Shown here: positions 47,461-54,874 of the stretch, in pieces | Layout: each line of letters begins with the position of its first letter | Numbering within the stretch: the first letter of the stretch is position 1 | Source: a phage | Assembly: GCA_016389475.1 (NCBI GenBank) | Contig: GCA_016389475.1_3042.1 | Length of the DNA stretch: 64,000 bases | Reading direction: 5' to 3' (one strand) | Translations under genes and position numbers: made by a program | Notes under the pieces: model-generated | Database searches by the model: none | What the model was told of the DNA's origin: nothing | Seen by the model: the letters and a program-made list of their open reading frames with translations, nothing else

Positions 47461-48348
47461 TTAAGATTTAAGTAAATCAACAATTTTAATTAACTTTTCA
47501 CGCTCAGATTTAGCTTTACTACTCAATCCAGATAGTCTAAAGATTTCATCGTCATATTGTTGAATAGAAATATTCAGCTCTTCAATTTGCTTATTAAAAT
47601 AATCAATTTGCTCAGAATGTTTTTCGTTACTACGAACTGGTACAGGTTTTGTAGGCAATTTAGTTGAACTGGATTCATCCGGGCGATAAATTAAAATACA
47701 ACTTGAACCAATTGGACATTTTGCACCAGATGAATATTCTAATGTTCCAGATTCTTTTAAAACTTCAAAAGCTAAACAGAGATGATGACCCATATTGACA
47801 TAATCAGTAGAGCAAGCTCTGATGTAATAATCATCTCCACGAGTACTAAATTTAAAGCATTTAAGGTCTTCTGTATTATTGGTCTTAAAAATCATTTGTT
47901 TATCTAGACCTTTAGCTAATCGAGCGCCTAATGCTAATAATCGTCGTTGATTTTCCCACAAATCTGCAATCATTTGGTCAAATGATAATTTTGGCATTAG
48001 TCGACCATAAAGGTCATATCCTTTATTATAATTACGAAGAATTTCACTCGCATTAATACGAGACAATGCTCCAATTTTATTAAGGGCTTTCATGATGCGA
48101 TTAGATAAACTCATTCCAGATCCGTTTGTTCGCTGTAAATGTTTTTCTAATCCAAATCCAATATCAACTTTAAATTTATCTAAAATTTCAGCATGAACAT
48201 CTCTGTCAATAACATTCAAATCCAAAGTTGGGTTAAATCTATGAAAAAATTTATCTGGCTCTCCACGACGAAGTACAGTCCATTCATTCAATTTTTTATT
48301 AACTAAAGATTTAATTACTGTATTGACATTATTAATTACTACTGACAT
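47461..48348 (-). CDS. coiled-coil-tailed protein, paralog family member 4 (295 aa from ATG)
   Basis: ORF track from GTG 48384; ATG at 48348 with GAGGA RBS; C-terminal coiled coil. Confidence 0.55.
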   Translation of the reverse strand: MSVVINNVNTVIKSLVNKKLNEWTVLRRGEPDKFFHRFNPTLDLNVIDRDVHAEILDKFKVDIGFGLEKHLQRTNGSGMSLSNRIMKALNKIGALSRINASEILRNYNKGYDLYGRLMPKLSFDQMIADLWENQRRLLALGARLAKGLDKQMIFKTNNTEDLKCFKFSTRGDDYYIRACSTDYVNMGHHLCLAFEVLKESGTLEYSSGAKCPIGSSCILIYRPDESSSTKLPTKPVPVRSNEKHSEQIDYFNKQIEELNISIQQYDDEIFRLSGLSSKAKSEREKLIKIVDLLKS

Positions 48349-48355
48349 ATTTTCC

Positions 48356-48763
48356 TCACTCAATTTCAATTTTACTAAATACACAGAATATGATGGAAAA
48401 GACTATATAAGCACCGCATACAGATTGAACTAATACCATTCCAAAGAACCAAACGATATTATCAAACAATGTCTGTTTTACGTCGAAAGGACGTAAACTT
48501 ACAGTAATATTATCACCTTTTTCTATTGAAGAATACATCTCTGGGGAAATATATTCACTAAATCTATAACCGTCTTTGAGTTCATATACGGCAATAAACG
48601 ATAAACTAGACCCCTTTCCTTGAGTTCCTGTAATGGTATTAACTACAGTAACATCATAATCTTTATAATGCATATAATCATTAATAGCATAATAACCATA
48701 TGCAATTACTATACATAAACAACATATCAATAAATTCAATCTTTTAATTATCAACTGTTTCAT
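48356..48763 (-). CDS. membrane protein (135 aa)
   Basis: ORF track; N- and C-terminal hydrophobic segments. Confidence 0.55.
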   Translation of the reverse strand: MKQLIIKRLNLLICCLCIVIAYGYYAINDYMHYKDYDVTVVNTITGTQGKGSSLSFIAVYELKDGYRFSEYISPEMYSSIEKGDNITVSLRPFDVKQTLFDNIVWFFGMVLVQSVCGAYIVFSIIFCVFSKIEIE

Positions 48764-48818
48764 AATAATCTCAATTAAAAGGGCTTAGAACCATTATACC
48801 ATCCTTGGTATAAAGCGG

Positions 48819-49346
48819 TTATGCGAGTACCGTCTTTAACCGTTCTTCAAATTTCCGAAGAGTGTTCTGGCGTTCAGCTCTTTGCTTTTTGTAAGTTTCA
48901 ATACGCTCTGAAATGAGAGTGTATCGTTCATTTACTGATTCTTTCATAAAATCAGGAATTTCACGAGAAGCTTTAATCTCATCAAATTTATCAATAACAG
49001 CTTGCTCTTCAGCAATTAAGTTATCATACATTAAAATATCTTTCTTGATGAACTCAATATCTTCTTGAGTTACACGAGATAATTTAGATGCTTTATCCTT
49101 TTTGTACTGTTCGTTAGTATCACGAGACCAGTGTAATGTACGATTTTTATTCGTATTTTTGTAAATTTCTACAATACCAATTTCATCAATAATAACGATC
49201 CAATTCCAACGGGATTTGTAAATTTGTCCTCCATCAACAGTGATTTCACCTCCGATTGAGATGTCATTAAAGAACTTGCTTTGTGCTTCAGATTTAAATT
49301 TACCGTCGTTATAATTTACCAGGTTGAAAATATCTTTAGCGTTCAT
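48819..49346 (-). CDS. hypothetical protein with C-terminal coiled coil (175 aa)
   Basis: ORF track. Confidence 0.55.
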   Translation of the reverse strand: MNAKDIFNLVNYNDGKFKSEAQSKFFNDISIGGEITVDGGQIYKSRWNWIVIIDEIGIVEIYKNTNKNRTLHWSRDTNEQYKKDKASKLSRVTQEDIEFIKKDILMYDNLIAEEQAVIDKFDEIKASREIPDFMKESVNERYTLISERIETYKKQRAERQNTLRKFEERLKTVLA

Positions 49347-49373
49347 GTTTTACCTCCAGTAGTTGATAGGTCT

Positions 49374-49402
49374 ATAATAACATAACCATAGACCTTGTAA
49401 AC
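49374..49402 (-). promoter_or_regulatory. T4-type early promoter
   Basis: gtaaac 49397-49402, ataata (TATTAT) 49374-49379, 17-nt spacer. Confidence 0.5.
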
Positions 49403-49404
49403 AA

Positions 49405-49692
49405 CTAAAAGAAACTTTTTTCGGTATTTTTTCCACTGAACCAAACAGACTTCGGGATTTTTTGTAATTTTTCAGATTTAAGTTTCTCTTCCTGTTCTTT
49501 CTTATATACACTCTTGTCGTACTGGAGCATCTCTAGGGCATTCTTTTGCAAACGATCTAAGGTAATTAAGGCTTTAGTTTTTCCTTTCAAGGAAGAGTCC
49601 TGGCGAACTTCCTCGCTATATTGCATCGTAGAACTAACCATACGATGTGCATACAGTTCGACTGCGGCTTTAATTTTTTGCATAAAATCCAT
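49405..49692 (-). CDS. hypothetical protein (95 aa)
   Basis: ORF track; AGAGGA RBS. Confidence 0.5.
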   Translation of the reverse strand: MDFMQKIKAAVELYAHRMVSSTMQYSEEVRQDSSLKGKTKALITLDRLQKNALEMLQYDKSVYKKEQEEKLKSEKLQKIPKSVWFSGKNTEKSFF

Positions 49693-49830
49693 AACATATC
49701 CTCTTTGATTTGTACATCATTATTTTTAAATATTTCTATGCCCTCAGTAGGTTCCTGGTGTCCTTCTTTGAGGTAAGCCATATGATTATTCATCTTTATG
49801 GCTTTTGTTACCTCAGAACTTCCTATAAGC

Positions 49831-50799
49831 TTATTTCAGTAAAGTAACTTCCGAGATTTCTTCCCAACCATCTTTATCAGTTGAAATAAAATCTGCTACA
49901 TAAAGAGCCGTACGTAATGATACATTGCGAAGACGAGATACGTTAGCCTTCATCCAGGACAATGCTTTATACGTTTCTGCATCCGTCAGACCACGTTTCT
50001 GCATCATGTCAGTAGATAATATTACATCTTCAACTCGAACCATAATCTCTTCATTAGAGTGTACTCCAAGGTCGAGATACACTGAACGAGATACTAAAGC
50101 TTGAAGGTGTGGAGCAAGTTTCGAACCCCGTTCTAACTCTTTATCGATATCAACGTTTGTAATGAAAACGATAGTACCTTCAAACTCAAATTCTTTATCA
50201 ATACCCTTATCCTCGAGATAAGATGACGCAGTGCTCCAACAAACTTTGCGTTTATCTCCGGTATCTAATGCTGCTTTAAGAAGGTTCAGGATGTCCATAT
50301 CTGAGAATACGTCAACGTCATCGATTAAGAGAACGCTGTCTTCATCACGGTTGAGCCAAAGTTGTTCGTAAAGGCCAATACCAGAGATTTTACCATTAAT
50401 GCTTTTGTATTTGATGAAACCGTTATCATTAGCATTATTAAGTGCTTTATCCAGAGAATACGTTTTACCAATACCTGCTGCTCCCGAGATAATTAATGAA
50501 CGAATGTTTCCGTTAATAATACCATTCGTCATCATTCCCATAACATTAAATCTTTTATTAATGCGGGTTTTCATATCTTCATACGATTCTTTAACTTCTT
50601 CAACTTTTACACCATCATATGAAATGTCTGATTTGTAAACCCAAACACCGCGACGCTTACCGTCAATTTCAACAAAAACTTTACCATCTCCTTGTGCATC
50701 TACCGGAGCATTATCTGGGAACCATTCACCTAAGAGCTCAAAAGTTCCAGAGATTTCTTTACCGAAGTAGATACCCTTATTGATAGTTACAGTTTTCAT
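49831..50799 (-). CDS. P-loop ATPase (322 aa from ATG)
   Basis: ORF track; Walker A GAAGIGKT and Walker B LLIDDVD; ATG at 50799. Confidence 0.65.
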   Translation of the reverse strand: MKTVTINKGIYFGKEISGTFELLGEWFPDNAPVDAQGDGKVFVEIDGKRRGVWVYKSDISYDGVKVEEVKESYEDMKTRINKRFNVMGMMTNGIINGNIRSLIISGAAGIGKTYSLDKALNNANDNGFIKYKSINGKISGIGLYEQLWLNRDEDSVLLIDDVDVFSDMDILNLLKAALDTGDKRKVCWSTASSYLEDKGIDKEFEFEGTIVFITNVDIDKELERGSKLAPHLQALVSRSVYLDLGVHSNEEIMVRVEDVILSTDMMQKRGLTDAETYKALSWMKANVSRLRNVSLRTALYVADFISTDKDGWEEISEVTLLK

Positions 50800-50833
50800 T
50801 TTATTCTCCAAATCCGTATCAGTTGATAGTTGT

Positions 50834-50863
50834 ATAGTACCATAAAGCTTTATGCTTGTAAAC
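50834..50863 (-). promoter_or_regulatory. T4-type early promoter
   Basis: gtaaac 50858-50863, atagta (TACTAT) 50834-50839. Confidence 0.55.
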
Positions 50864-50893
50864 CGTTTTGTGAAAAATTTTTGAAATAAAAAA

Positions 50894-50911
50894 GGGAGCC
50901 CGAAGGCTCCC
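50894..50911 (-). terminator. intrinsic terminator with C(UUCG)G tetraloop
   Basis: gggagcc-cgaa-ggctccc followed on minus RNA by UUUUUUAUUU. Confidence 0.65.
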
Positions 50912-50913
50912 TA

Positions 50914-51927
50914 TCATTTATAATAACTTCGGTGGTTTTCAAGATAGACCTTCTCAAGGAAGTCATCCCAGAAACCCATGTCTACTTTTTGCTGCATACC
51001 GTTCTTAGAAGCTTCAGTAGATGCTGCTTCTACTTGATCGACCACATCTTCCAAAAACTCTTGAACTGTTTTAAATGGATGTTTACCCAACTTCACGTCG
51101 AGAATAAATGGAGCATCTTGGAGTGGATAAACCAAGTCACCAGTTTTGTAAATTTCCAATAGTTGGAGTCCACCACGACAAGCATGACTCAGAGCTTTCC
51201 AGTCAATGCCTTCATTAGCTTCGGCTTTACGAGCACGTTCACCATATTCAGCATCTAATTTATTCAGTGACTGCTTAAGCTCAATAAGAGAAAGTGTTGT
51301 CTGATATTTACGACCCAACACAGTGTAGAACGTTTGCGGGCCTGTTTTCTCGTGATTATGGAACACCCATTCACAGAATTCGTTTTCTGGAAGACGATGC
51401 TTAATATCTTCAACTTTAGTGCGACGCTGCTTAATAGAACCATCTTCTTGGTAATCAACCCATTGCTCGGGGATTTGATTAACTACTTTCAATACATCAC
51501 GTAATGCAGCCAAACGAGAACCCTTGACACCGTATTTAGAAGCTTGCTTGCGAACATATCCTAAATAGGATTTCATGTTAGTCGTATAAAAACGAGAACG
51601 GTTGTCTTGAATAAACTTCCACACATCAGGCAAATCAGATTTAACCACTAGTTCAGGTGGAGTGTGAAGCATATCCAATGCTACAGTTTCACCATCTGCT
51701 GCTAATTTAAAGAAATATTTAAGACTGTATAGTTCATGGTCAATATCATCTTTAGTGTTTTTAGATGATGTGTTGTTAGTGTTTTTACTCATGTGCTCTT
51801 TGACATTTCCGATAAGAATATCACGAGCAGGAGGAACAAAAATTTCTTTAAAATCTACATCAGATTCTGGGGTAGAAGTTCCATAAAGATGACTACCAAA
51901 ATAGCTTTTCATTACTGTTTTCATCAT
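50914..51927 (-). CDS. nucleotidyltransferase-fold protein (337 aa)
   Basis: ORF track; YFGSHLYGTSTPESDVDF matches minimal NTase G-S-x(9-13)-D-x-D motif; later VALDML third acidic site. Confidence 0.6.
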   Translation of the reverse strand: MMKTVMKSYFGSHLYGTSTPESDVDFKEIFVPPARDILIGNVKEHMSKNTNNTSSKNTKDDIDHELYSLKYFFKLAADGETVALDMLHTPPELVVKSDLPDVWKFIQDNRSRFYTTNMKSYLGYVRKQASKYGVKGSRLAALRDVLKVVNQIPEQWVDYQEDGSIKQRRTKVEDIKHRLPENEFCEWVFHNHEKTGPQTFYTVLGRKYQTTLSLIELKQSLNKLDAEYGERARKAEANEGIDWKALSHACRGGLQLLEIYKTGDLVYPLQDAPFILDVKLGKHPFKTVQEFLEDVVDQVEAASTEASKNGMQQKVDMGFWDDFLEKVYLENHRSYYK

Positions 51928-52385
51928 TCAGCCTTATATTCAATAACAGGACATACTTTAGCTTTACGAGCTTTTAAAAATTCAACGATAATCGATTTCT
52001 TGGGTTGAATAGGAGGTAAACCTTTATACGCCCTATCAATATTTTCTACGTGTAAAGCATAATCCTTTTTCCATTTATAATCTTTATATTTTTCACGCAA
52101 ATGTGCAGGAATAACAAATGAACCGATAATAAGTAAAACAACCAAAAGCGCAAGTATAAATGCTGATGGAAGCAAAGTCCATAAACTACCAAAAATAAGC
52201 CAACGCTGTAGGCTTTCTGCACAAATAATTGTTAGCCCTACGAGTATAGCACATCCAAAAATAGAAACGAAAAATGTAGGAATGGCAATAGACCAAAAAT
52301 ATGCGCATAGTGTCTTAGGTCGTTGCCATTCATCGTTAAACAATTTGAATAATTTATAGTGCCAAGAGTTTTCATTAATAATCAT
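51924..52385 (-). CDS. membrane protein (153 aa)
   Basis: ORF track; 2-3 TM segments. Confidence 0.55.
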   Translation of the reverse strand: MIINENSWHYKLFKLFNDEWQRPKTLCAYFWSIAIPTFFVSIFGCAILVGLTIICAESLQRWLIFGSLWTLLPSAFILALLVVLLIIGSFVIPAHLREKYKDYKWKKDYALHVENIDRAYKGLPPIQPKKSIIVEFLKARKAKVCPVIEYKAE

Positions 52386-52387
52386 AA

Positions 52388-52909
52388 TTATCCTTTCATT
52401 GAAGGCGTAACGGTTGTTAAATACTTAATCATAGCTTCAGCTTCTGATTTTGACAATGAAATTTCTTCATTGTTTTGACGAATAGAAATAAAATCCGGAT
52501 GACGGTCACCACCAGCTTTTAAAACACACATATAAGTATCAACTTCATCTTCAATATTTGAAATGATTGAAGCAGTTCCACATGAATGCGGTTTTTGATA
52601 AATCAATGCAGCTTTTCTTCCGCCATTTGACTGTTCATAAACTTTTAATACATCAAACAAATCACTTCTTTTATCAATAGCTAAAATGTTATTTTCATCT
52701 TCAATGTTAAATCCTTCGGATACTTCATAAAGTGTCACCCATAAATCGCCAATATCAATAACAGCATTTACTTTTCCATGACTTTCAAGAGCATGACAAA
52801 TTTTCTTGATTTCGTCATAACTCATTTTAATAATATCATCTCCTTGACTAAGAAAGATGTCATTTTTAAATTCAACACGAATTAAACCGCTTCCACTTGA
52901 AATAAACAT
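52388..52909 (-). CDS. hypothetical protein (173 aa)
   Basis: ORF track. Confidence 0.5.
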   Translation of the reverse strand: MFISSGSGLIRVEFKNDIFLSQGDDIIKMSYDEIKKICHALESHGKVNAVIDIGDLWVTLYEVSEGFNIEDENNILAIDKRSDLFDVLKVYEQSNGGRKAALIYQKPHSCGTASIISNIEDEVDTYMCVLKAGGDRHPDFISIRQNNEEISLSKSEAEAMIKYLTTVTPSMKG

Positions 52910-52915
52910 ATTTCC

Positions 52916-53473
52916 TCACTTTGAAATCATAGTTGGAATAACAGAATCAAGATAAGTCTTTAGTGCAATAGTTTCGTCTTTGGTAAATGTGACAATATGT
53001 GCTCGAAAATCATCAATTTGACGAATAGTTAAGACATCTCCATCTTCATAACATTTTGATACGTTTAAAACAGTTTCATCATTCTGATTGCAAGCGTTAG
53101 TAATAATAGCATTGCAATTTTTAAACCATTTTAAACTATGTTTTCTTTCATTAGAATAATAAAAATATTTAATCTTATCTATAAAACTATCCCAATGGAT
53201 AACTGATAAGCATATTGACTCGCTTTCAATATTAAATCCTGGGCATGAAGAATAAAAATGAATTTTATGCTCATCATTAATGCTTATAATTTTATCAGTA
53301 TAAGGATTTTCAATTTTGGTTAAATGAATGATTTCACTAGGCGTAAAATACAGCATATCGTCTTCTTGTGTCAAACGATACATATTATTTACTTTTTCTA
53401 TAGCCAATTCACCAAAAAGTGAACTAACTTCTAATACTAATCGTTTCATATTGATTCTCTTCGACTCGCTCAC
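52916..53473 (-). CDS. hypothetical protein (185 aa)
   Basis: ORF track. Confidence 0.5.
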   Translation of the reverse strand: MSESKRINMKRLVLEVSSLFGELAIEKVNNMYRLTQEDDMLYFTPSEIIHLTKIENPYTDKIISINDEHKIHFYSSCPGFNIESESICLSVIHWDSFIDKIKYFYYSNERKHSLKWFKNCNAIITNACNQNDETVLNVSKCYEDGDVLTIRQIDDFRAHIVTFTKDETIALKTYLDSVIPTMISK

Positions 53474-53607
53474 AATTACATACTCCTTTGAATAATATCA
53501 ATAATGTTGTTCACCAGATTATAGGTAAACAAAGGATAATTATATTGAATCATCACATACACAACAAACAAAATTTTCATTCTCTTCTCCTCAGTAGTTG
53601 ACAAGAT

Positions 53608-53637
53608 TACTATACCATAACCTTGCCAACTTGTAAA
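53608..53637 (-). promoter_or_regulatory. T4-type early promoter
   Basis: gtaaac 53632-53637, actata (TATAGT) 53608-53613. Confidence 0.55.
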
Positions 53638-53814
53638 CCATTAAATGGCGTTTTCAATAAAATTCTGAAGCTTTGTGTGAGCATCAACCATGATTTTCAT
53701 TTCTTCTTTGGCGAAAGCTGTACCTCTTTCCCGAGAAGAACATTCATAGTCAGAAACTGCATTAGCATATTCTTCGATTAGTTTCATTAAAAACATCTGT
53801 TTTTCAGTTTTCAT
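53635..53814 (-). CDS. micro-ORF (59 aa), absent from ORF track
   Basis: Hand translation MKTEKQMFLMKLIEEYANAVSDYECSSRERGTAFAKEEMKIMVDAHTKLQNFIENAI. Confidence 0.35.
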
Positions 53815-53998
53815 TATTCCACCTAATCATTTCAAGATATTGAACTAACTTAGCTTTAGATTTATCCAAATCCTTTTTAGCTGCTTCTATACCGTCGTAT
53901 GAATATCCTTCACAATGCTCAACTGCTAATTGATATGAATCTATTTCAATATCACGTGCTAATTTAATGATTTTTTCAAACTGTTCGCGTGTTAGCAT
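53804..53998 (-). CDS. hypothetical protein (64 aa)
   Basis: ORF track. Confidence 0.45.
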   Translation of the reverse strand: MLTREQFEKIIKLARDIEIDSYQLAVEHCEGYSYDGIEAAKKDLDKSKAKLVQYLEMIRWNNEN

Positions 53999-54000
53999 AC

Positions 54001-54240
54001 TTACACTCTCGTATTATGATCGATAATTTCATCAAGAAACATATCTAACGCTTCTATAGCATTATCCACTTTAGTTTCAAAGTCTTTAATGCCTTTATTC
54101 GAAATACCCGATGAATACCAAGCAAAGTCAATCAGCTCTTCATCTGCTTTACGAATTGAAGCCACTAATTCCTTGATTTTATCTGCTTGCTCTATACTAA
54201 TCATTATTCCACCACATATGACAGAGAGAATATTGCGCAC
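54001..54240 (-). CDS. hypothetical protein (79 aa)
   Basis: ORF track. Confidence 0.45.
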
Positions 54241-54392
54241 GCCATGTGAGTTGCAACTTCATCACACATATTATAACGTTTCTTAAGAAGTTCTACAAGT
54301 TCTTCACTAGTAACTTCATCCATGTCGACGAAAAAATCACCATTAATGATGACGTAGATATTTCCTTCTTGATTGAGTGCTTCAATTTTCAT
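54204..54392 (-). CDS. hypothetical protein (62 aa from ATG)
   Basis: ORF track start 54437 lies inside the promoter; ATG at 54392 has GGAGGAG RBS. Confidence 0.45.
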
Positions 54393-54420
54393 GATATTCT
54401 CCTCTTTATCTGATAGTTGT

Positions 54421-54450
54421 ATAGTATCACAGCTCAAACGGAAAGTAAAC
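54421..54450 (-). promoter_or_regulatory. T4-type early promoter
   Basis: gtaaac 54445-54450, atagta (TACTAT) 54421-54426. Confidence 0.55.
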
Positions 54451-54465
54451 CGGTAAAATGAAAAA

Positions 54466-54483
54466 AGTCTCCCGAAGGAGACT
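54466..54483 (-). terminator. intrinsic terminator with C(UUCG)G tetraloop
   Basis: agtctcc-cgaa-ggagact followed on minus RNA by UUUUUUCAUUUU. Confidence 0.65.
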
Positions 54484-54487
54484 AATG

Positions 54488-54874
54488 TTATTCGAGGGAA
54501 AGAAGATACTTACTCTGGTAAAACATTCCAGTAATATCATCTATCGTGCTTTGAATGGCTGGAGGCATTTCTTTATAAATGCTGTTAGATTGGTCTAGTA
54601 TGCGATCAATCATTTTAATTGTGTCGGTAGGAAGTTTACTGGCATCTGGAATTGAAGGCGTGTATTTTCTACCAGAATACCCCAAATATTGCTCACCAAA
54701 TTTATCAATCAAATCTGGCAACTCGGAGAAAATAAAATCGTATGCTTTGTGTCTAGCATAACTTTTAGTTTCAAAATGTGCAGAATGAAAATAAGCTTGT
54801 GCAGCCATTAATAAACCTAAGTATTCATCTGCCTTTGAAGGTTTTCCACTTTGTGAAAAGTCGCTGAATTTCAT
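54488..54874 (-). CDS. hypothetical protein (128 aa), rI.-1 position
   Basis: ORF track. Confidence 0.5.

Follow-up and report, generated by a model that had tools for sequence, protein, structure and literature searches.

Do two neighboring phage genes, one encoding a nucleotidyltransferase (NTase) and the other a P-loop ATPase, form a functional pair, and what might their products do? The question arises at positions 49831–51927 of a 64,000-nucleotide stretch of phage DNA (contig GCA_016389475.1_3042.1 of NCBI GenBank assembly GCA_016389475.1; this whole stretch is called the window below), where a first-pass annotation made from the sequence alone had noted a protein of 337 amino acids with a minimal NTase signature followed, after a terminator and an early promoter, by a Walker A/B ATPase of 322 amino acids. 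By megablast and tblastn searches the locus belongs to Tequatrovirus, and the features annotated under the matches are nrdC.11 for the NTase (open reading frame (ORF) at 50914–51927, minus strand) and nrdC.10 for the ATPase (ORF at 49831–50799, minus strand). Their relatives are found in 1518 and 1312 phage records, respectively, which bears out the earlier suspicion that both are conserved T-even genes of the nrdC region. On balance, and with considerable reserve, we favor an account in which NrdC.11 belongs, as a long form, to the RlaP family (PF10127) of Pol-beta nucleotidyltransferases and adds nucleotides to RNA 3′ ends, and NrdC.10 is an independent AAA+ ATPase. The adjacency of the two genes does not mean partnership: nrdC.11 and nrdC.10 are separate transcription units, separable in evolution, and do not make up a two-gene system.

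Both genes have long been catalogued as conserved early genes of T4-like phages, and the match of nrdC.11 to the COG3541 nucleotidyltransferases and of nrdC.10 to AAA ATPases was already listed by Nolan et al. (2006; PMC1524935). The NTase family, its predicted role and its biochemical activity are likewise in the literature, where T4 NrdC.11 is named. No new type of system emerges from the locus, and the adjacency that drew attention to it represents no functional pairing. Besides this lack of functional pairing, what is new here is the insert that sets the long form apart from canonical RlaP together with the frequent tandem arrangement of the two forms in cellular genomes, the inter-genus recombinant nature of the window's nrdC.10, and an intergenic space that serves as an insertion hot spot.

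First, the family membership of NrdC.11 is carried by several profile comparisons and by its motifs. The Pfam RlaP model matches residues 7–135 with 44.2 bits (gathering score 23; E = 2.5e-11), the protein falls into the PHROG family phrog_388, annotated as “nucleotidyltransferase” (E = 8e-137), and PF10127 is carried by all 120 of its listed homologs. Common Tequatrovirus alleles match the window's nrdC.11 with 100% identity. In a conservation alignment of 63 homologs reaching down to 34% identity, G11, S12, G16, S22, D23, D25, N57 and D63 are invariant in the N-terminal part and Y132, R231, K244, H248, R251, P268 and K279 further on, while D61, D85, D242 and W243 are conserved in at least 90%. 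The catalytic residues are encoded on the minus strand at 51897–51892 (G11–S12), 51861–51859 (D23), 51855–51853 (D25), 51741–51739 (D63) and 51675–51673 (D85), and a conserved C-terminal motif, D242-W-K244-x3-H248-x2-R251, at 51204–51175. The NTase signature, whose conservation in homologs the first-pass annotation had made a condition of its reading, is that of a Pol-beta-type fold with invariant G11–S12, D23-x-D25 and D63, and RlaP does not count among the housekeeping families. The same annotation had called the function of the NTase not evident from sequence; this no longer holds, as the threshold of the RlaP model is passed and an activity has been demonstrated for the family (bioRxiv 10.64898/2025.12.29.696909).

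Compared with a profile built from twelve short, canonical RlaPs, NrdC.11 aligns in hhalign over residues 4–91 with a probability of 94.5%, and its D23, D25, D63 and D85 fall on D39, D41, D72 and E94, such that the hGS…DxD…D core is shared position by position. The two forms differ in size and in what follows this core. NrdC.11 is about 80 residues longer (337 versus approximately 255 amino acids), it carries a poorly conserved, beta-rich insert of some 90 residues at approximately 135–235, and its C-terminal half cannot be aligned by hhalign. Beyond residue 91, where that alignment ends, the spacing of K244-x3-H248-x2-R251 nonetheless equals that of K149-x3-Y153-x2-R156 in canonical RlaP, and in a homolog from the Rheinheimera phage Barba31A the Pfam RlaP alignment extends to model position 180. 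The shared K-x3-[H/Y]-x2-R spacing suggests to us that the long form may amount to a canonical RlaP into whose helical domain some 90 residues have been inserted. An AlphaFold 2 model of NrdC.11 (mean predicted local distance difference test score (pLDDT) 91.9) has an N-terminal NTase domain, a C-terminal helical domain and a variable beta-rich element at approximately residues 155–209; the succession of an NTase and a helical domain is also the one described for RlaP (bioRxiv 10.64898/2025.12.29.696909). Sequence and profile searches with the long and canonical forms found nothing related among the solved structures in a copy of the PDB that lacks the PfRlaP crystal structure, and NCBIfam and PADLOC returned nothing meaningful for either NrdC.11 or NrdC.10.

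Second, the genomic surroundings of a minority of cellular homologs point in the direction of RNA repair. Scanning prokaryotes with a single genome for each species yielded 80 loci, the best of 156 confirmed, with full-length long-form relatives (32–54% identity over approximately residues 2–330), many of them on megabase contigs. Among the 149 same-strand ORFs surrounding 69 recovered NrdC.11-type genes, a Pfam scan identified canonical RlaP (10), PNKP_ligase (3), RtcB (2), RtcA (2), Hen1 (1) and a T4-Rnl1-type RNA ligase (1), along with the kinase-like AAA_33 (4) and Ro60-vWA (2). The most frequent arrangement is a canonical RlaP of about 255 amino acids, with full-length PF10127, lying immediately 3′ of the long form on the same strand in 11–12 of the 69 loci (L060, L074, L086, L105, L109, L110, L114, L126, L128 and L133 included). 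Since both forms are encoded side by side in these loci, they are suggested not to be redundant; a specialized long form, if that is what NrdC.11 represents, would explain the tandem pairs. Among phages, Barba31A (locus L053, 4250–6900) has an apparent operon comprising a CCA-adding enzyme with an HD domain, an ORF of 139 amino acids that has no Pfam match, and the NrdC.11 homolog, which is the second gene downstream of the CCA-adding enzyme. In the window and in T4-like loci, nrdC.11 is flanked by small proteins, with no RNA ligase or end-healing enzyme among them. As a separate observation at L056 (4141–5334), a contig assigned to a Bacilli metagenome-assembled genome (MAG) bears a 54%-identical NrdC.11 homolog and, as the second ORF upstream on the same strand, a TET-associated glycosyltransferase (PF20691); the contig probably represents hypermodified phage DNA placed in a bacterial MAG during binning.

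What reaction might NrdC.11 then perform? T4 Pnkp and Rnl1 repair tRNAs as a counter-defense to the PrrC anticodon nuclease, and this classical pathway works without an NTase. Nucleases of the RloC type have been proposed to defeat phage RNA repair through removal of the wobble nucleotide. On the enzymatic side, a preprint of 30 December 2025 characterized the RlaPs of two Pseudomonas species, PfRlaP and PaRlaP, which come from rtcB-rlaP-rtcA operons (bioRxiv 10.64898/2025.12.29.696909). These enzymes transfer one or two nucleoside monophosphates (NMP or dNMP) onto an RNA 3′-OH, prefer Mn2+, are inactive on DNA and protein, and, given a cleaved-tRNA mimic, act on its 5′ half in preference to the free 3′ end of the 3′ half (bioRxiv 10.64898/2025.12.29.696909). 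RlaP raises the aminoacylation of a tRNA from which one anticodon-loop nucleotide had been lost ahead of ligation, and with total Escherichia coli RNA, rRNA- and tRNA-sized species become labeled with little NTP specificity; the same work places T4 NrdC.11 in cluster 5 of the sequence similarity network (SSN) of the RlaP family, separate from the canonical form, and calls its function unknown (bioRxiv 10.64898/2025.12.29.696909). Earlier, Iyer et al. (2021; PMC7824862) had named RlaP the commonest NTase of this kind in jumbo phages, distributed in parallel with RNA ligases, and had given as its predicted role the restoration, prior to ligation, of the nucleotides that nucleases such as RloC remove.

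By analogy with these enzymes, we infer RNA 3′-end addition by T4-type NrdC.11 and the following order of repair steps. NrdC.11 would bind an NTP and two divalent metal ions through D23, D25 and D63 and would extend the 3′-OH end of a broken RNA by one or two nucleotides without a template, its probable substrate being the 5′ half of a tRNA whose end has been trimmed by a nucleotide-excising host anticodon nuclease of the RloC type. T4 Pnkp would first take off the 2′,3′-cyclic or 3′ phosphate and phosphorylate the 5′ end, NrdC.11 would then put back the missing nucleotide, and T4 Rnl1, which requires a 3′-OH and a 5′-phosphate, would finally seal the break. The chemistry of such a pathway is coherent because Pnkp makes the 3′-OH that RlaP needs and RlaP leaves a 3′-OH for a 5′-phosphate ligase; NrdC.11 shares a phage lineage with Pnkp and Rnl1, and its expected product would suit the latter (bioRxiv 10.64898/2025.12.29.696909). 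Of the options that the first-pass annotation had listed for the NTase, tRNA or RNA repair is the one that finds support, and the cGAS/DncV-like, CCA-adding and MNT–HEPN placements do not. Still more specifically, NrdC.11 could be an unrecognized third tRNA-repair enzyme of T4 that restores the RloC-excised nucleotide between the actions of Pnkp and Rnl1, a tentative proposal that we consider possible and rather doubtful. Should NrdC.11 indeed put nucleotides back onto broken tRNA ends, T4 would already possess a counter-move to RloC, and the best-studied RNA repair system would gain a third component.

Several points weigh against RNA 3′-end repair as the role of NrdC.11. Addition to a 3′-OH has been shown only for PfRlaP and PaRlaP, and by the authors' own account untemplated addition yields mostly wrong products (bioRxiv 10.64898/2025.12.29.696909). 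The Pfam match spans residues 7–135 and the hhalign alignment 4–91 only, leaving a highly diverged C-terminal half; this matters because the choice of substrate depends on that half, with its insert of about 90 residues. At the majority of the 69 cellular loci the neighboring genes are unrelated, and in T4-like phages nrdC.11 neither adjoins nor clusters with pnk or rnlA. Finally, the T4 block from nrdC.11 to mobD.3 can be deleted with laboratory viability kept (PMC9825161), which is compatible with an accessory role and says nothing of which role.

Third, the neighboring nrdC.10 encodes a recognizable AAA+ ATPase. In the program-made ORF list, the gene starts at a TTG at 50811, giving 326 amino acids; since this TTG falls within a GGAG Shine–Dalgarno sequence (50809–50806, minus strand, 6 nucleotides 5′ of an ATG and conserved in relatives), the 322-residue reading from that ATG is the right one. 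All features of the protein lie on the minus strand: an N-terminal beta domain (residues 1–65, 50799–50605), Walker A (G106-AAGIGKT-113, 50484–50461), Walker B (D160–D161, 50322–50317), sensor 1 (N215, 50157–50155), a candidate arginine finger (R238, 50088–50086) and a helical lid (residues 249–320). Across 50 homologs of 54–88% identity, the Walker A motif, D160–D161, N215, R238 and R291/R296 are invariant, in full agreement with the Walker A/B ATPase read from the window at the outset. The structural model (pLDDT 89.9) consists of a five-stranded beta domain at residues 1–62, a long linker helix, an AAA+ core with an extra strand–helix–strand element ahead of sensor 1, and the helical lid. 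With Walker A and B, sensor 1, an arginine finger and an alpha–beta–alpha core followed by a helical lid, the features of AAA+ membership are all present. Relatives in jumbo phages match only from about residue 70 and hence lack the N-terminal domain of NrdC.10. The gene is one of a widespread group of phage AAA+ ATPases, with some 1,300 phage records.

Placement within the AAA+ superfamily is less forthcoming. No Pfam model reaches its cutoff on NrdC.10, while AAA_16, AAA_22 and AAA_14 appear weakly in 36–46 of the 50 homologs, its PHROG family is labeled “unknown function”, and fold searches give generic AAA+ matches at 9–19% identity with no clade resolved. None of NorQ/CbbQ (MoxR-type), the sigma-54 activators, MCM, DnaA/ORC/Cdc6, RFC or RuvB stands out; unlike these clades, NrdC.10 has an N-terminal beta domain of its own and none of their typical partners, such as VWA proteins, a clamp or origin DNA-binding domains. 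NrdC.10 is probably an ATP-driven, oligomeric remodeler of the early period of nucleotide and DNA metabolism; by its motifs it is catalytically complete, and nothing links it to the NTase.

Might NrdC.10 more specifically be an accessory of DNA replication or recombination, for instance an alternative loader or a RarA/RuvB-like remodeler? Its homologs in some phages keep suggestive company: in Vibrio phage K474, the homolog lies in a replication module, preceded by clamp, clamp loader and helicase genes and followed by those for a second helicase and RNase H; the homolog in Xanthomonas phage X1 adjoins a primase/helicase; and in KVP40-like phages, it sits between nrdA-nrdB-nrdC and topoisomerase II. 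There is in addition a weak match to the clamp-loader family phrog_168 (E = 5e-4), and to the eye the NrdC.10 stretch “LLIDDVD…LNLLKAALD…ALVSRSVYL” resembles the DExD, NALLKTLEEP and SRC elements of clamp loaders and RarA. Weighing on the other side, the PDB profile search gave only Cdc6, at E = 0.08, and the genes around it in T4-type, Aeromonas and Agrobacterium phages offer no clue; no recurrent neighbor of NrdC.10 emerged among the annotated Agrobacterium, Xanthomonas, Vibrio and Aeromonas phages and two Vibrio genomes. Such a role seems unlikely, and the broader description as an independent AAA+ ATPase is the one we retain, with a slight inclination to DNA metabolism. The two Vibrio genomes themselves, Vibrio sp. 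ER1A (L143, 2508–6969) and V. parahaemolyticus (L141, on a 290-kb contig), carry NrdC.10 homologs of 56–58% identity in non-T4 mobile elements without the NTase; one homolog has a large serine recombinase 2 kb away, and the other sits among AntA, Gp111 and antirestriction genes.

Returning to NrdC.11, the divergence of its C-terminal half raises the question of whether its substrate is RNA at all. It could instead AMPylate a host or defense protein, in the way the MNT antitoxin treats HEPN, modify a small molecule like the aminoglycoside NTases, or make an oligonucleotide or cyclic-nucleotide signal or decoy like HalB and the CD-NTases. The nearest structures to the model in Foldseek are the kanamycin NTase KNTase/ANT(4′), the NTase-like protein 3c18, HalB of the Hailong system, Tam41 and the MNT antitoxin, its C-terminal half and beta-rich insert are unlike the characterized RlaPs, and there is a faint match to the NCBIfam MntA model. 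These structural matches are weak (E ≥ 6e-3, template-modeling (TM) score ≤ 0.30) and reflect an NTase core that is common to them all; ANT(4′) and HalB, which like NrdC.11 combine this core with a helical domain, show 8–15% identity, no sequence-family match, and other substrates and biology. The MntA match amounts to 13 bits against a cutoff of 60, the neighboring ORFs have no HEPN or other partner, and searches for PADLOC systems and for CD-NTase or PolyA_pol Pfam families found none. The characterized RlaPs, moreover, label neither protein nor DNA, and the neighborhoods of some cellular homologs point toward RNA repair. A substrate other than RNA accordingly strikes us as quite improbable.

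Three specific placements of NrdC.11 were rejected on the same body of searches. A type VII (MNT–HEPN) toxin–antitoxin component is at odds with its 337 amino acids, as compared to about 100–150, and with the subthreshold MntA score; the HEPN partner that the first-pass annotation had proposed to look for did not materialize in any of the eleven flanking ORFs scanned, from 47461 to 54874. A CD-NTase of the cGAS/DncV type found no match in PADLOC or Pfam and none in the top 50 PDB structures. A CCA-adding enzyme or poly(A) polymerase is discarded for want of a match to the PolyA_pol head domain (PF01743); a scan of this kind gives 72 bits for the genuine CCA-adding enzyme of Barba31A.

Alternatively, NrdC.11 may act on RNA 3′ ends outside repair, tailing host mRNAs or tRNAs to mark them for decay during host shut-off, or mending or altering the 3′-CCA of tRNAs. 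The broad labeling of rRNA- and tRNA-sized E. coli RNA with little discrimination among NTPs would fit this possibility, as would the co-operonic CCA-adding enzyme in Barba31A (a Barbavirus) and the location of nrdC.11 away from pnk and rnlA in T4-like phages. It is harder to reconcile with an addition that stops at one or two nucleotides and with the preference for a cleaved-tRNA mimic, and the recurrent cellular neighbors are ligases and end-healing enzymes rather than decay factors. We give tailing of this kind little chance of being the true role, and continue to regard nucleotide addition at broken RNA ends as the preferred activity of NrdC.11.

Fourth, the short stretch between the two genes contains the signals expected of separate transcription units. 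Downstream of the NTase stop codon (TGA, 50916–50914), a predicted intrinsic terminator of the nrdC.11 unit occupies 50883–50912 on the minus strand, with an 8-bp G+C-rich stem, a UUCG loop and a U6-A-U3 tail; the hairpin GGGAGCC-UUCG-GGCUCCC with the ensuing U6 (50912–50888) has a folding energy of −16.4 kcal/mol and a z-score of −3.6 relative to shuffled sequences. It is followed at 50834–50863, on the minus strand, by a predicted sigma-70 or T4-early-type promoter for nrdC.10, composed of GTTTACA (50863–50857), a 17-nucleotide spacer and a TG-extended −10 element (TGgTACTAT, with TACTAT at 50839–50834). The stem bears compensatory changes in JS98-type relatives, in which the loop, the T-run, GTTTACA and the Shine–Dalgarno sequence are unchanged, and the −35 element GTTTACA is invariant in five aligned phages. 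Promoter scanning of this AT-rich region is overall at chance level (35 sites versus 32.7 expected), so that the promoter call rests on its position, on the form of GTTTACA and the TG-extended −10, and on conservation. The terminator and early-type promoter that had been read between the genes are thereby upheld, both being kept in relatives. A screen of the entire window against Rfam returned no RNA family.

The intergenic space itself (50800–50913 in the window) is an insertion hot spot. Among related loci in IMG/VR, the gap ranges from 112 to 2290 nucleotides and holds foreign inserts: T2 has a gene for a ModA-like ADP-ribosylase and an ORF of 33 amino acids there, and phage DalCa a DUF4031 gene.

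The two genes also differ in ancestry, the window's copy of nrdC.10 being a recombinant between genera. Over a patch of some 1.1 kb (49350–50500) the DNA shows 98.5–98.7% identity to Mosigvirus (RB69-like) phages, while its flanks are Tequatrovirus. The patch covers residues 121–322 of NrdC.10 along with a DUF7203 ORF of 95 amino acids (49405–49692, minus strand), and in consequence nrdC.10 is a chimera whose residues 1–120 are 100% of the T4/T2 type and whose residues 121–322 (from about 50439 to lower coordinates) are 100% of the Mosigvirus type. Over its full length, the allele reaches at most approximately 93% protein identity among the records listed, with one record in the 95–99% band, for which coverage is not shown.

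Finally, how regularly do the two genes travel together? Of the 51 IMG/VR loci with the ATPase, 38 have the NTase gene directly upstream and in the same orientation; the other 13, Aeromonas T4-like, Vibrio KVP40-like and Cronobacter-type loci included, have no NTase within 10 kb. In KVP40, about 62 kb separates the NTase (88930–89970) from the ATPase, which lies near 151 kb, and in a Vibrio genome a 56%-identical ATPase stands alone beside a serine recombinase. Relatives of the ATPase are found in none of the 80 cellular NTase loci. Klebsiella phages account for 286 NTase versus 149 ATPase records, implying at least 137 with the NTase only, and Vibrio phages for 59 versus 121, implying at least 62 with the ATPase only. 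The combination of co-transcription and co-occurrence that would mark a two-gene operon or system was not found. Taken together, the terminator and promoter, the inserts in the gap, the occurrence of either gene singly and the recombinant nrdC.10 argue for shared genome order rather than a functional module: nrdC.11 and nrdC.10 are neighbors because T4-like genomes share their gene order. That the two proteins nevertheless constitute a module, with the ATPase loading or remodeling the substrate of the NTase or both acting jointly against host defense, is very unlikely, for although both genes lie in the early region and the same-strand adjacency in those 38 loci extends to Acinetobacter T4-like phages at 51–66% identity, it is opposed by the conserved terminator and promoter between them, the unrelated genes inserted there in T2 and other phages, the distance in KVP40, the missing ATPase at every cellular NTase locus, the many phage records with one gene only, and the arrival from another genus of the 3′ two-thirds of nrdC.10 and not of nrdC.11.

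The surroundings on the 5′ side of nrdC.11 have features of their own. A predicted membrane protein of 153 amino acids (phrog_944; 51924–52385, minus strand) ends in a stop codon that overlaps the ATG of nrdC.11 as ATGA, and its homologs lie directly 5′ of nrdC.11 in most T4-like loci, including those of Acinetobacter phages at 27–43% identity; for T4 proper, the order given in the literature at the same place is mobD-nrdC.11. Further 5′, two sets of tandem paralogs lie on the minus strand at 52388–53473 and 53641–54240, the first consisting of two y05I-like putative transcription factors (PF24449 and PF24448; 173 and 185 amino acids) and the second of three DUF7438 proteins of 57, 64 and 79 amino acids.

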